Below are positions 610-41,107 of a stretch of 64,000 bases of DNA, one piece after another; the first letter of the stretch is position 1, and every line of letters begins with the position of its first letter. The notes beneath the pieces are model-generated. The model had not been told where the DNA came from, searched no databases, and worked only from the letters and a program-made list of their open reading frames with translations. Made by a program: the position numbers and the translations under genes. The stretch lies in assembly GCF_003334785.1 (NCBI RefSeq), contig NZ_QOWV01000010.1, one strand, 5' to 3'. The stretch is from Escherichia coli (lineage in GTDB: Bacteria; Pseudomonadota; Gammaproteobacteria; Enterobacterales; Enterobacteriaceae).

Positions 610-645
610 AAACGGGAGGCGAAGGTGCCTCCCGTTTTGCTTTCT
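610..645. terminator. Bidirectional rho-independent terminator between convergent envZ and pckA
   Basis: Hairpin aaacgggaggc-gaaggt-gcctcccgttt followed by a T-rich run, sitting between the two stop codons. Confidence 0.6.
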
Positions 646-35916: not shown

Positions 35917-37290
35917 TTAATGGTTGGAGAACCAGTTCAGTTTATCGCGCAGGCCAACAACCCGACCAATAATAATTAGCGATGGACTGTTCATTTGCTG
36001 CGCCAGTTCTCCCAGCTGTGTGAGCGTACCGTCAATCACGCGCTGCGTGACTGCCGTACCGTTTTCGACAATTGCCACCGGCATTTCGCCTGGCATTCCG
36101 TGTTCAATCAGCTTTTGCTGAATAGTCGCGGCCTGATTCAACCCCATATAGAACACCAGCGTCTGTTTTTCTGCCGCCAGGTTTTCCCAGTCCAGCTCGC
36201 CACCGGTTTTTAAGTGTCCGGTAATTAAGCGTACGCTCTGGGCATAATCGCGATGCGTGAGTGGAATACCCGAATAGGCAGAGCAACCAGAAGCTGCGGT
36301 AATACCCGGAACCACCGAGAACGGAATACCCGCGTTGCACAGTGTTTCCAGCTCTTCGCCACCACGGCCAAAAATAAACGGATCGCCACCTTTCAGCCGC
36401 ACCACGCGTTTGCCTTTTTGCGCTTCCCGCAGCAGGATCTGGTTAATCTCTTCCTGGGGTACGCAGTGGTATCCCGCGCGTTTGCCGACGAAAACACGGT
36501 CCGCATCGCGGCGTACCAGATTCATAATATCGTCAGAAACCAGACGGTCGTAGACCACCACATCTGCCTGCTGAATTTGTTGCAGTCCTTTCAGTGTCAG
36601 CAGCCCGGCATCGCCCGGACCTGCACCAACCAGCACCACTTCACCGCGATGGTCGAGCGGTTCGTTGATTAACTGTTCGGTCGTTTCAGTAATGGCTTTC
36701 TGATCGTTGTTTGCCAGCGACTGCGCCAGGCGGTCGTTAACGAACAATTTCTCCCAGAAACGGCGACGCTCACCCATCGTGGCGAACTGTTGTTTCACTC
36801 GCCCGCGTAATTGCCCGGCGTATTTCGCTACCTGGCCCAGATGTAACGGCAGCAGTGATTCAAGTTTTTCGCGCAACAGGCGTGCCAGAACCGGAGAGGT
36901 GCCGCCAGAGGAGACCGCTACCATGAGCGGTGAGCGGTCAATAATCGACGGCATAATAAAGCTGGCGGCTTTCGGCGCATCGACCACGTTACAGAAGATG
37001 CGACGAGCTTCAGCGGCTTCGCTGACGCGCTGGTTAAGCGCGTCATCATCCGTCGCTGCAATCGCCAGCCAGCAGGTGTCGAGAAGGCTTTCATCAAATG
37101 GCCCTTCGACGAGGGTTAACATGCCTGCATCTGCCCATGCGGTGAACTGTGGAATAAACGCTAATGCATTCACCGTTAAGCGAGCGCCTGCGTCTAACAG
37201 CAACCTTGCTTTGCGTTCCGCGACATCACCACCGCCGACAATCAGACAGTCGCGATCGCGTAATTGGCAAAATATAGGCAAATGATCCAC
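35917..37290 (-). CDS. cysG: Siroheme synthase (multifunctional)
   Basis: 457 aa with an N-terminal NAD-binding domain ([16 protein letters not shown]) and a C-terminal methyltransferase domain. Confidence 0.95.
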
Positions 37291-37308
37291 GTAAAAACCC
37301 CTTAGTAA

Positions 37309-38115
37309 TTAACCGGCAGCCGTTTCAGTTTGATTAAATTTGTCCGCAACCGGACGATTCGCTTTCGGCGTAGCATACCAATAACCCAATCCCATGAATA
37401 CGGCACCTGATAAAGTATTACCCAGCGTCACCCACAGCAGGTTATGACCAATACCCGCCAGCGTGTAGGCTTCGCTGTGGTTGCCGAACCAGGAGAGCGC
37501 GAACAGCGTCATGTTAGCGATAGAGTGCTCGTAGCCGGACGCGATAAATGCCAGCAGACACCACCAGATAGCGATAAATTTCGCCGCCCCTTCAGTGCGC
37601 AGCGCCATCCAGATTGCCAGGCAAACCAGCCAGTTACACAATGCACCTTTGAAGAAGAGTACCATTGCCGGTGCAGTGGTTTTAGCCAGCGCGACGGAGT
37701 GAACGATGCTGGTATCTACCGGCAGCAGGCTACCGCCGCCCCAGCTATAGAGCATGGCAACGAAGACGGAACCGACCAGGTTACCCAGCCAGGTTTGCGG
37801 CAGGATTGCCCACATTTGCCCGTGGCTGATGCTGCCCGCTTTTACCCCAAAGGTGAGGAACATGGTGTGTCCGGTGAACAGTTCAGAACCGGCGATAATC
37901 ACCAGCGTTAAGGCGATACCAAAGGTCGCGCCCATCACCAAAGGGCGTACGGATGGATCGAGCAAATTACCGAGCGTGAAAATCAGGATGATCCCAAGAC
38001 CCACATACGCGCCCGCCATGGCGGAGCTGACCCAAAAGCCGAGCGGGTTATTTGCCGACAGGCGTGCAATGCGCGCAGCGTTAGCCGCACACTTATTAAT
38101 AGTGTCTGTAAACAT
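37309..38115 (-). CDS. nirC: Nitrite transporter NirC (formate/nitrite transporter family)
   Basis: 268-aa polytopic membrane protein. Confidence 0.95.
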   Translation of the reverse strand: MFTDTINKCAANAARIARLSANNPLGFWVSSAMAGAYVGLGIILIFTLGNLLDPSVRPLVMGATFGIALTLVIIAGSELFTGHTMFLTFGVKAGSISHGQMWAILPQTWLGNLVGSVFVAMLYSWGGGSLLPVDTSIVHSVALAKTTAPAMVLFFKGALCNWLVCLAIWMALRTEGAAKFIAIWWCLLAFIASGYEHSIANMTLFALSWFGNHSEAYTLAGIGHNLLWVTLGNTLSGAVFMGLGYWYATPKANRPVADKFNQTETAAG

Positions 38116-38212
38116 TTGATTATCCTTTAAAAAATAAAAACAAAAAATAAAACAAAAAGTTTAAAAAATGTCCTGCAATATACCGAAGATTATTACAGGA
38201 CCATGCAAAAAG

Positions 38213-38231
38213 GGGAGGCATTGCGCCTCCC
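38213..38231 (-). terminator. Intra-operon hairpin plus T-run just downstream of nirD (putative attenuator before nirC)
   Basis: On the coding (minus) strand, gggaggcgcaatgcctccc is followed by TTTTT, 10 nt after the nirD stop. Confidence 0.35.
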
Positions 38232-38240
38232 GTTAAAACA

Positions 38241-38567
38241 TTAACCGCGCAGCTGCACCACGCCGTCTTTCACTCGCGCTTCGTAATGTTTGACGGAAAA
38301 CTGTTCGTCTTCCATGCACAAGCCGTCGCTTAAGCGAAAACGCTGTTTTTTCAGCGGGCTGGCGACCCACAGCTCGCCCTGGTGTTCCGCAATCAGTCCG
38401 CGTGACAGCACGCTGGACTCGAAGAACGGGTCGATGTTGCTGATCGCAAACACCTGATCGCTGTGATACGGGCGGAAAATCGCGACCTGCTCGTCACCTA
38501 ACAGCGCGCAGACGCCGGTTTCAGGCAGGATGTCATCGATTTTGCAGATGTCTTTCCACTGGCTCAT
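38241..38567 (-). CDS. nirD: Nitrite reductase [NAD(P)H] small subunit
   Basis: 108 aa, Rieske-like; 4-nt overlap with nirB. Confidence 0.95.
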   Translation of the reverse strand: MSQWKDICKIDDILPETGVCALLGDEQVAIFRPYHSDQVFAISNIDPFFESSVLSRGLIAEHQGELWVASPLKKQRFRLSDGLCMEDEQFSVKHYEARVKDGVVQLRG

Positions 38568-41107
38568 GCGTTGTCCTCCACCAGAGTTACTGGGATACGT
38601 TCATACGGCGTTGCCGGACGGTGCTGTTCGCGCTCTGGCACCATCTGCACGTTCGGGTCACGCTTGTCGCTGTTGATGAAGTGTTTGAAGCGAGTCTGCG
38701 CAGACGGCGTATTGACCGTTTCAGTCCACTCACACAGTACCGCTTCACGCAGGCGCGCCATCTCTTCTTCCAGATGTGCGTTCAGCCCCAGTTTGTCGTC
38801 AATGATCACTGCTTTCAGGTAATCGATGCCGCCTTCGAGGTTTTCTAACCACGGTGCGGTACGCGTCAGTTTGTCGGCAGTACGGATGTAGAACATCATG
38901 AAGCGGTCGAGATATTTGATCAGCGTTTCGCGATCGATATCCGCCGCCAGCAGATCCGCATGACGCGGTTTCATGCCGCCGTTACCGCAAACATACAGGT
39001 TCCAGCCTTTTTCAGTGGCGATAATACCCACGTCTTTACCCTGAGCTTCTGAACATTCACGGGTACAGCCGGAGACACCGAACTTCATTTTGTGCGGCGT
39101 ACGGATGCCTTTGTAGCGGTTTTCCAGTTCCACGCCGAGGCCGACGCTGTCGCCAACGCCGTAGCGGCACCAGGTGCTACCCACGCAGGTTTTCGCCATA
39201 CGCAGTGCTTTCGCATAGGCATGACCGGTTTCGAAGCCGGCTTCAATCAGCTGACGCCAGATCTCCGGCAGATCGTCTTTCTGTGCGCCAAACATCGCCA
39301 GACGCTGGGAGCCAGTGATCTTGGTGTAGAGATTAAATTCACGCGCGATACGACCTACCGCCATCAGCCCTTCCGGGGTGATTTCACCGCCCGGAGAACG
39401 CGGGATCACCGAGTAGGTGCCGTCTTTCTGGATGTTAGCGAGGAAGTTGTCGTTAGAATCCTGCAGCGGAGTATGTTCCGGCTTCAGAATGTATTCGTTC
39501 CAGCAGGAGGCCAGCAGCGAACCGACGGTTGGTTTACAAACTTCACAACCGTAGCCTTTGCCGTGTTTCGCCAGCAGTTCTTCGAAGGTTTTAATGCCTT
39601 CAACGCGGATCAAATGGAACAGTTCCTGACGCGAATAAGCAAAGTGTTCGCACAGGTTGTTGTTAACTTCGATGCCCTGTTTCGCCAGTTCCGCGTTCAG
39701 TACCTGAGTGACCAGCGGGATACAGCCACCGCAGCCAGTACCCGCTTTGGTTTCAGCTTTCAGCGCCGCAACTGTGTGGCAGCCTTTGTTGATGGCAGCA
39801 ATCAGATCACCTTTGGTGACGTCGAAGCAGGAGCAGATTTGCGCGCTGTCCGGCAGTTTATCAACACCGATAGACGGCTTGCCGCTACCCGAGTGTGCTG
39901 GCAGGATCAGGGAATCCGGGTTTTCCGGCAGTTCGATAGCGTTCAGCACCAGTTGCAGCAGGTTACCGTAGTCGCTGGTATCGCCCACCAGTACCGCACC
40001 GAGCAGGGTTTTGTTGTCTTCGCTGACAATCAGGCGTTTGTAGATCTCTTTACTTTCGTCGAGGTAAACGTAGCTACGTGCGCCAGGCGTGCGACCGTGC
40101 GCATCACCAATACCGCCTACGTCTACGCCCAGCAGTTTCAGCTTGGCGCTAAGGTCAGCACCTTCAAAGGCGTTTTCGCTACCGAGAATATGGTCAACGG
40201 CGACCTGCGCCATTTTGTAGCCAGGTGCTACCAGACCAAATACACGGTTGTTCCAGCTTGCGCATTCACCGATGGCGTAGATATCCGGATCGGAAGTCTG
40301 GCAGGAATCATTAATGACAATACCCCCACGCGGAGCAACGTCCAGACCACACTGGGTTGCCAGCTTATCGCGTGGACGGATACCGGTAGAGAAGACGATA
40401 AAGTCGACTTCCAGTTCGCTGCCGTCGGCAAAACGCATGGTTTTACGCGCTTCAACACCTTCCTGCACAATCTCAAGGGTGTTTTTGCTGGTGTGAACGC
40501 GCACGCCCATACTTTCGATTTTGCGACGCAGCTGCTCGCCGCCCATCTGATCAAGCTGTTCTGCCATCAGCATAGGGGCAAATTCGATAACGTGGGTTTC
40601 AATACCTAAGTTTTTCAGCGCGCCTGCGGCTTCCAGACCTAACAGGCCGCCACCAACAACGGCACCGCGTTTGCTGCGACGGGCGCAGGATTCAATGGCG
40701 TTGAGGTCTTCAATAGTGCGATAGACAAAGCAGTCCTGAGTATCAGAACCTTTGATTGGCGGGATCCACGGGTAGGAACCGGTTGCCATGATCAGCTTGT
40801 CATAAAAAACGGTACGTCCGGCGCTGGAGTGAATCACCTTCTCCTGACGGTTGATGGTGATAGCGCGTTCGCCGACCAGAACTTTGATGCCGTGTTTCTC
40901 GTAGAAGCCTTCGCGCACCAGCGACAGCTCTTCGGCGGTGTGGTGAGAGAAGTAAGACGAGAGGTGTACGCGGTCATAAGCGATGCGCGGTTCTTCACAG
41001 AAAACGGTAATATCAAAGTTGGCCGCATCAGATTTATCAAGAAGATCTTCGATAAAGCGATGGCCGACCATACCGTTACCGATAATTGCGAGTCTGACTT
41101 TGCTCAT
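38564..41107 (-). CDS. nirB: Nitrite reductase [NAD(P)H] large subunit
   Basis: 847 aa with an N-terminal FAD/NAD-binding fold (RLAIIGNGMVG) and siroheme/Fe-S domain. Confidence 0.95.
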   Translation of the reverse strand: MSKVRLAIIGNGMVGHRFIEDLLDKSDAANFDITVFCEEPRIAYDRVHLSSYFSHHTAEELSLVREGFYEKHGIKVLVGERAITINRQEKVIHSSAGRTVFYDKLIMATGSYPWIPPIKGSDTQDCFVYRTIEDLNAIESCARRSKRGAVVGGGLLGLEAAGALKNLGIETHVIEFAPMLMAEQLDQMGGEQLRRKIESMGVRVHTSKNTLEIVQEGVEARKTMRFADGSELEVDFIVFSTGIRPRDKLATQCGLDVAPRGGIVINDSCQTSDPDIYAIGECASWNNRVFGLVAPGYKMAQVAVDHILGSENAFEGADLSAKLKLLGVDVGGIGDAHGRTPGARSYVYLDESKEIYKRLIVSEDNKTLLGAVLVGDTSDYGNLLQLVLNAIELPENPDSLILPAHSGSGKPSIGVDKLPDSAQICSCFDVTKGDLIAAINKGCHTVAALKAETKAGTGCGGCIPLVTQVLNAELAKQGIEVNNNLCEHFAYSRQELFHLIRVEGIKTFEELLAKHGKGYGCEVCKPTVGSLLASCWNEYILKPEHTPLQDSNDNFLANIQKDGTYSVIPRSPGGEITPEGLMAVGRIAREFNLYTKITGSQRLAMFGAQKDDLPEIWRQLIEAGFETGHAYAKALRMAKTCVGSTWCRYGVGDSVGLGVELENRYKGIRTPHKMKFGVSGCTRECSEAQGKDVGIIATEKGWNLYVCGNGGMKPRHADLLAADIDRETLIKYLDRFMMFYIRTADKLTRTAPWLENLEGGIDYLKAVIIDDKLGLNAHLEEEMARLREAVLCEWTETVNTPSAQTRFKHFINSDKRDPNVQMVPEREQHRPATPYERIPVTLVEDNA

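Follow-up and report, generated by a model that had tools for sequence, protein, structure and literature searches.

What does a short GC-rich hairpin do in the middle of the nirBDC-cysG operon of Escherichia coli, directly behind the nirD stop codon? A first-pass annotation of the 64,000-nucleotide stretch of DNA analysed here (the window) had read it as an intrinsic terminator or attenuator that would reduce read-through into nirC-cysG. The window is K-12-like. Its segment 37300..38600 is 100% identical to MG1655 and was found in all 5,426 of 5,426 complete E. coli genomes, the nirD-nirC junction region is present in 5,426/5,426 at an identity of at least 90%, and nirB, nirD, nirC and cysG were identified by 100% matches to E. 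coli K-12 MG1655. Window positions (w) convert to positions in K-12 NC_000913.3 (g) by g = 3,535,118 - w. The features discussed below are collected in Table 1.

Table 1. Features of the nirBDC-cysG locus around the nirD-nirC junction (window coordinates).
Feature	Position	Strand	Basis
nirB	41107..38564	-	K-12 match
nirD	38567..38241	-	ORF; annotated nirD in K-12
nirD stop codon TAA	38243..38241	-	ORF end
Linker UGUUUUAAC, 9 nt, nirD stop to hairpin	38232..38240	-	sequence
Probable terminator hairpin GGGAGGC-GCAAT-GCCTCCC = GGGAGGCGCAATGCCTCCC	38213..38231	-	fold, covariation, Salmonella orthology
Hairpin 5' arm GGGAGGC	38231..38225	-	sequence
Hairpin loop GCAAT	38224..38220	-	sequence
Hairpin 3' arm GCCTCCC	38219..38213	-	sequence
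Single C, then TTTTT (C + U5, U tract)	C 38212; T5 38211..38207	-	sequence
Spacer, U tract to nirC, 91 nt	38206..38116	-	sequence
Second stem-loop GGUCCUGUAAUA...UAUAUUGCAGGAC	38170..38201	-	MFE + centroid fold of spacer
AUUUUUU after second stem-loop	38169..38163	-	sequence
U-rich tract, (U4-6 R) repeated	38129..38169	-	composition
Predicted NarS pairing site UAAAGGAUAAUCAAAUGUU, covers nirC Shine-Dalgarno (AAGGA) + start codon	38111..38129	-	duplex computation
nirC start codon ATG	38113..38115	-	ORF + K-12 annotation
nirC	38115..37309	-	K-12 match
cysG	37290..35917	-	K-12 match

The stem consists of seven Watson-Crick pairs, six of them G-C, and encloses a loop of 5 nt, exactly as the first-pass annotation had described it for the minus strand. 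Its remaining measurements need small corrections. It placed the hairpin ten nucleotides after the nirD stop; the hairpin does start at the tenth nucleotide, and the gap itself is 9 nt. The TTTTT it noted after the stem is present, preceded by a single C that it left unmentioned, and the spacer before nirC is A/T-rich as stated (76% A+T), with a length of 91 rather than 90 nt. With an optional G.U pair the loop shrinks to CAA, for a total of eight pairs and a 3-nt loop. The hairpin alone folds at -13.6 kcal/mol. Within a 51-nt context the folding energy is -17.4 kcal/mol (z = -2.87), and one of 200 shuffled sequences was equally stable.

Intrinsic terminators combine a G-C-rich stem of about 5-14 bp and a loop of 3-8 nt with a U-rich tract immediately 3' of the stem, on the transcribed strand and downstream of a coding region. 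The nirD hairpin has such a stem and loop, a tail CUUUUUGCA with five U in its first six nucleotides, and a position 9 nt past the nirD stop. A consensus terminator scan places it at rank 2 among the terminator-like sites in 33-43 kb; the same region yields 24 sites by loose criteria against 11.6 +/- 3.9 expected, so that scan rank alone is weak evidence. Strict criteria (at least seven perfect pairs, at least five of them G-C, and a T tract) leave just eight hairpins in the whole window, both strands included. Two features count against a terminator, namely the short U tract (5 U) with a C between it and the stem, and the distance of only 9 nt from the stop codon. The latter matters in the light of the E. 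coli terminator tR2, whose efficiency 5 bp after a stop codon fell from ~90% to <10% with a trailing ribosome (PMC4824070). Canonical U tracts measure 7-9 nt, and the shorter one here points to a leaky terminator. A scan of 37000..39000 against Rfam 15 returned nothing at gathering score; the only matches were sub-threshold, to sroE (22 bits, 51 required) and IsrM (19 bits, 376 required).

An intra-operonic terminator downstream of nirD has been described in Salmonella enterica (Wang et al. 2020, Nucleic Acids Res 48:2126, PMC7038943). The Salmonella operon gives rise to a full-length RNA of 5.4 kb and to species of 2.8 kb (nirBD, detected by northern blot), 2.5 kb (nirC-cysG) and 1.4 kb (cysG). 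The 3' end of nirBD is marked by a stem-loop of -14.90 kcal/mol with a U track behind it, and the 5' ends of nirC RNA lie in the U-rich region and arise by RNase E-dependent processing. Deletion of stem-loop and U track lowered nirBD RNA, raised nirC-cysG RNA and reduced the repression of a nirDC reporter by NarS from ~30-fold to ~5-fold. Hairpin and U tract were removed together, and termination and 3'-end protection were not separated in this experiment (all PMC7038943).

The Salmonella loci that we fetched (L032, L087-L092) read GGTTAATTAATTTTGGGAGGCGCAACGCCTCCCCTTTTTTG, matching the paper's "TTAATT stop codon region", and their hairpin GGGAGGCGCAACGCCTCCC has a computed energy of -14.8 kcal/mol compared with the published -14.90. 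The E. coli and Salmonella hairpins match at 18 of 19 nt. The single difference affects a loop-closing base, the pair being G.U in E. coli and G-C in Salmonella. In both organisms the hairpin follows directly after the nirD stop and is succeeded by a U tract and a U-rich spacer, and both retain the NarS site that covers the nirC ribosome-binding site. E. coli differs from Salmonella in having U5 instead of U6, in the distance from nirD stop to nirC start (125 nt compared with 80-81 nt in the fetched Salmonella loci), and in an extra, Escherichia-specific stem-loop that none of the Salmonella spacers contains. Judged by its sequence, the E. coli hairpin is the ortholog of the published, experimentally studied Salmonella element. 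The nirD terminator is already known, and no new principle follows from its E. coli copy; a literature search found no deletion or 3'-end experiment on the E. coli element. In a separate observation, ~45-60 nt separate the NarS site from the U tract in these Salmonella loci, compared with about 200 nt stated in the article (PMC7038943).

To follow the hairpin beyond these two genera we retrieved 80 nirC loci from enterobacteria and identified nirD and nirC in every one of them. The sequence behind the nirD stop was aligned for 38 species (alignment A1), and 77 loci were surveyed for hairpins, the K-12 duplicate being excluded. In A1, 95.1% of the cells of the 8-pair helix are paired, compared with 56-72% when the partners are slid by 1-3 columns. 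Compensatory double changes occur at three pairs: G-C is replaced by C-G in 10 sequences (columns 17/35), A-U by G-C in 14 (columns 20/32), and both sides have changed at columns 23/29 as well. Where the loop-closing position varies between T and C, the pair is G.U or G-C, respectively. Neither the pairing nor the covariation score was reached by any of 500 shuffles (0/500). On this comparative evidence, which is the strongest we have, a chance palindrome is excluded.

The survey found a hairpin with a T-rich tail 2-18 nt (mostly 5-9) past the nirD stop in 45 of 77 loci, among them non-homologous hairpins in Chimaeribacter and Enterobacillus. A T tract directly 3' of the hairpin is present in every Escherichia, Salmonella and Klebsiella locus surveyed. 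A hairpin lacking a strict T tail is present in 24/77, and eight of the 77, including three Serratia species with a 30-nt spacer, have no hairpin after the nirD stop. In the loop, GCAAY (A1 columns 24-28; window 38220..38224), conservation reaches at least 90% at each of the first three positions. Since it is conserved across genera in which three stem pairs have changed in a compensatory manner, the loop is more constrained than the stem sequence.

Several further observations concern the spacers of these relatives. The shortest of them measures 30 nt and the longest 432 nt. In Cedecea, Buttiauxella and several other genera the terminator site is taken up by one or more palindromes CCCTCACCC...CCCTCTCCC-loop-GGGAGAGGG, mostly without a T tract, and Citrobacter spacers contain TAGGCCTGATAAG units resembling REP elements. 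Such palindromes or units were seen in loci L023, L025, L026, L028, L030, L033, L034, L038, L040, L042, L044, L045, L054, L060, L064 and L067.

A second claim of the first-pass annotation was that the stem is the same as in the terminator between envZ and pckA. The 7-bp stem is indeed identical; the coordinates of the envZ/pckA hairpin are 614..633 and not 613..632. Common to both hairpins are the GGGAGGC/GCCTCCC stem, the 5' flank AAC, the loop-closing G...T and the tail TTTTGC, and their longest shared words are the 11-mer AACGGGAGGCG and the 8-mer TGCCTCCC. The loops differ (GAAGGT in envZ/pckA, GCAAT in nirD). The envZ/pckA stem is extended to 11 bp by AAAC/GTTT and is T-rich on both strands, hence bidirectional, whereas the nirD hairpin carries GTTAAAAC on the opposite strand and is unidirectional. 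No similarity was found between the two sites outside the hairpin. GGGAGGC is not over-represented in the window (7 occurrences, 6.3 expected). The complete GGGAGGC...GCCTCCC hairpin has two copies there and no further one in 150 kb of additional K-12 sequence, and of the 15 distinct strict terminators in 214 kb, no two besides the nirD and envZ/pckA hairpins have a 7-mer in common. Under a uniform model of G-C-rich 7-mers, the coincidence comes to ~1% for the nirD hairpin, as a rough estimate before allowing for post-hoc selection. We rejected a repeat family on the grounds that the 150 kb of K-12 sequence hold no extra copy and that only a single pair shares the 7-mer. A dispersed palindrome of the REP/BIME type was likewise rejected, as the 91-nt region occurs at one place per genome (median 1). 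The stem identity is probably an isolated coincidence, and we attach no functional claim to it.

The spacer between hairpin and nirC is 51% T, its A+T content comparing with a window average of 47.6%, and its last 54 nt reach 63% T in (T4-6 R) units. By analogy with Salmonella this U-rich tract is likely to be the region of RNase E cleavage and Hfq binding in E. coli; the Salmonella authors found no Hfq-CLIP peak (PMC7038943). The second stem-loop is conserved among seven Escherichia species, in which one pair has changed in a compensatory way (G-C to A-U) and the loop has diverged; the Klebsiella and Salmonella spacers lack it. It could serve as a tandem weak terminator or as a 5' protective hairpin for processed nirC RNA. 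The gene for the small RNA, narS (b4813), is annotated in E. coli K-12 at the 3' end of narK. For the NarS seed AUAUUUGAUUAUCCUUUG and its site at the nirC start, which is intact in E. coli, a duplex of 19 bp and -21.4 kcal/mol is predicted; this value comes from a seed-restricted calculation, used instead of a prediction with whole-length NarS and the spacer that was uninformative. According to the authors of the Salmonella study, E. coli RIL-seq supports the NarS-nirC pairing (PMC7038943).

Published data also document polarity at this junction in E. coli itself. Adams et al. 2021 (eLife, PMC7815308, supplementary file 2) report a Rho termination region that peaks at K-12 3,497,031 (+), i.e. 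window position 38087, 29 nt into nirC; its Rho score is 3.95 (p = 6e-12). In 800-nt windows, coverage falls from 586 upstream to 24 downstream when bicyclomycin is absent, and from 920 to 149 when it is present (PMC7815308). This amounts to a 24-fold drop across the nirD-nirC junction and a 6.2-fold drop with Rho inhibited, steady-state values that mix synthesis and decay. Part of the drop is Rho-dependent, a point against the terminator reading, and the overall pattern fits a Rho-independent step at the hairpin followed by a Rho-dependent step further on. The Term-seq tables of the same study, from aerobic cultures, list no E. coli 3' end for nirB, nirD, nirC, cysG or positions 3,49689x-3,49692x (PMC7815308). 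Because these cultures were aerobic the operon is barely expressed, and missing 3' ends are therefore expected. PMC10687069 likewise has no E. coli 3'-end entry for the nirD-nirC site. In these published coverage data, the polarity appears to have both a Rho-dependent and a Rho-independent component.

On the opposite strand the same dataset contains a Rho-terminated antisense transcript (window + strand, ~37463..38263; K-12 minus strand, peak 3,496,855) that faces the 5' part of nirC, the spacer and the 3' end of nirD. Its coverage falls from 262 (upstream) to 12 (downstream) in the absence of bicyclomycin, and from 405 to 66 in its presence (PMC7815308).

We conclude with good confidence that the hairpin acts within nirBDC-cysG as a leaky Rho-independent terminator and also caps the 3' end of the nirBD RNA. 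In E. coli this is based on the anatomy of the sequence, Salmonella orthology, covariation, an intact NarS site and the published coverage drop. The deletion effects and the dependence on RNase E were shown in Salmonella only and are carried over to E. coli by analogy, and how much of the effect in E. coli is due to termination and how much to stabilisation is a share that we infer. Polymerases coming from the nirB promoter would transcribe the hairpin and the following CUUUUU 9 nt past the nirD stop, where a fraction would be released to leave the nirBD transcript. The remaining polymerases would read through into nirC-cysG. RNase E would then cut the read-through RNA in the U-rich spacer, and the hairpin would shield the new nirBD 3' end from exonucleases. 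The liberated nirC-cysG RNA would be the target of the Hfq-dependent small RNA NarS, pairing over the nirC ribosome-binding site. As a net effect, the message for the NirBD reductase would far exceed that for the NirC transporter.

The original proposal of an intrinsic terminator or attenuator reducing read-through into nirC-cysG is thereby supported by the Salmonella ortholog, the covariation and the 24-fold and 6-fold coverage drops. Three points extend it. By analogy with Salmonella, the hairpin probably shields the nirBD 3' end once RNase E has cut; some of the nirD-nirC polarity is due to Rho; and the nirD element is part of the NarS/Hfq control of nirC.

A variant compatible with the leaky terminator is that translation sets its efficiency: a ribosome close behind the polymerase would block folding of the hairpin and permit read-through, and loose coupling would allow termination. 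The stop-to-hairpin distance, mostly 5-9 nt in loci with hairpin and T tract, would suit such an attenuator, and tR2 positioned 5 bp past a stop codon lost most of its efficiency and regained it once translation was uncoupled (PMC4824070). On the other hand, short spacing may merely reflect compact gene ends, and no conserved anti-terminator structure was found, a weak 5-bp helix over the stop codon being located in the genus-variable linker. We regard this attenuator as a tentative possibility, well short of an even chance. The same modest standing applies to the broader idea that the terminator is tuned rather than constitutive, with the ribosome finishing nirD deciding whether the hairpin folds and the GCAAY loop perhaps contacting a protein or RNA. 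Neither tuning nor loop contact appears in the parts of the Salmonella article consulted (PMC7038943). If tuning is real, read-through into nirC-cysG would track the tightness of transcription-translation coupling.

The hairpin might instead act on RNA stability only. No termination would occur in this case; RNase E would cut the spacer, the hairpin would block 3' exonucleases, and nirBD RNA would outlive nirC-cysG. Wang et al. themselves raised this explanation and showed RNase E-dependent processing (PMC7038943). The strong palindrome CCCTCTCCC...GGGAGAGGG of Cedecea, Buttiauxella and several other genera could, without a T tract, only stabilise, and with so short a distance between stop and hairpin a closely trailing ribosome should work against termination (PMC4824070). 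A pure exonuclease barrier, however, needs no T tract, and one directly follows the hairpin in 45/77 loci. Moreover, the rise of nirC-cysG RNA in the Salmonella deletion fits lost termination better than lost protection of nirBD (PMC7038943). We therefore consider stabilisation alone improbable.

Even less probable, and in our view a slim chance, is that polarity arises mainly from Rho acting on the long untranslated spacer and a poorly translated nirC start, with the hairpin being incidental. The Rho termination region 29 nt into nirC (score 3.95, p = 6e-12; PMC7815308) is what such an explanation would build on. It leaves the 6.2-fold fall in coverage from 920 to 149 that persists under Rho inhibition, and an incidental hairpin would lack compensatory changes. 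The spacer is also U-rich and C-poor, unlike typical Rho loading sites.

Finally, control of translation of a small ORF, or a palindrome due to chance, is barely credible: a 33-codon frame, MPPLFAWSCNNLRYIAGHFLNFLFYFLFLFFKG* (38221 to 38120, minus strand), has its ATG in the loop and a well-spaced, Shine-Dalgarno-like GGAGG in the 5' arm, but Salmonella, most Citrobacter and several Klebsiella lack the ATG (loop GCAAC) and the downstream frame is not kept even within Escherichia, so that we rejected it as an unlikely gene; this frame (38120..38221) is probably the historical 'nirE' frame.

The leaky terminator after nirD has functional counterparts in E. coli. The rplL-rpoB attenuator, T1 of rpsU-dnaG and the malE-malF REP hairpin are intercistronic hairpins that favour upstream genes by partial termination and/or 3'-end protection. 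They are unrelated to the nirD element in sequence and, unlike it, are not tied to small-RNA control of the downstream cistron. Beyond the Salmonella work, our comparison shows that compensatory changes have preserved the hairpin in many enterobacterial genera, and that in other lineages the corresponding position is occupied by a non-homologous terminator or by a palindrome lacking a T tract. Three aspects reach past the literature consulted: a possible tuning by the ribosome, the GCAAY loop with its unusual conservation, and the second hairpin, which is specific to Escherichia. For the cell, the nirD element explains how one promoter can provide much nitrite reductase (NirBD) and little nitrite importer (NirC). 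Low NirC probably limits cytoplasmic nitrite toxicity in anaerobic respiration.
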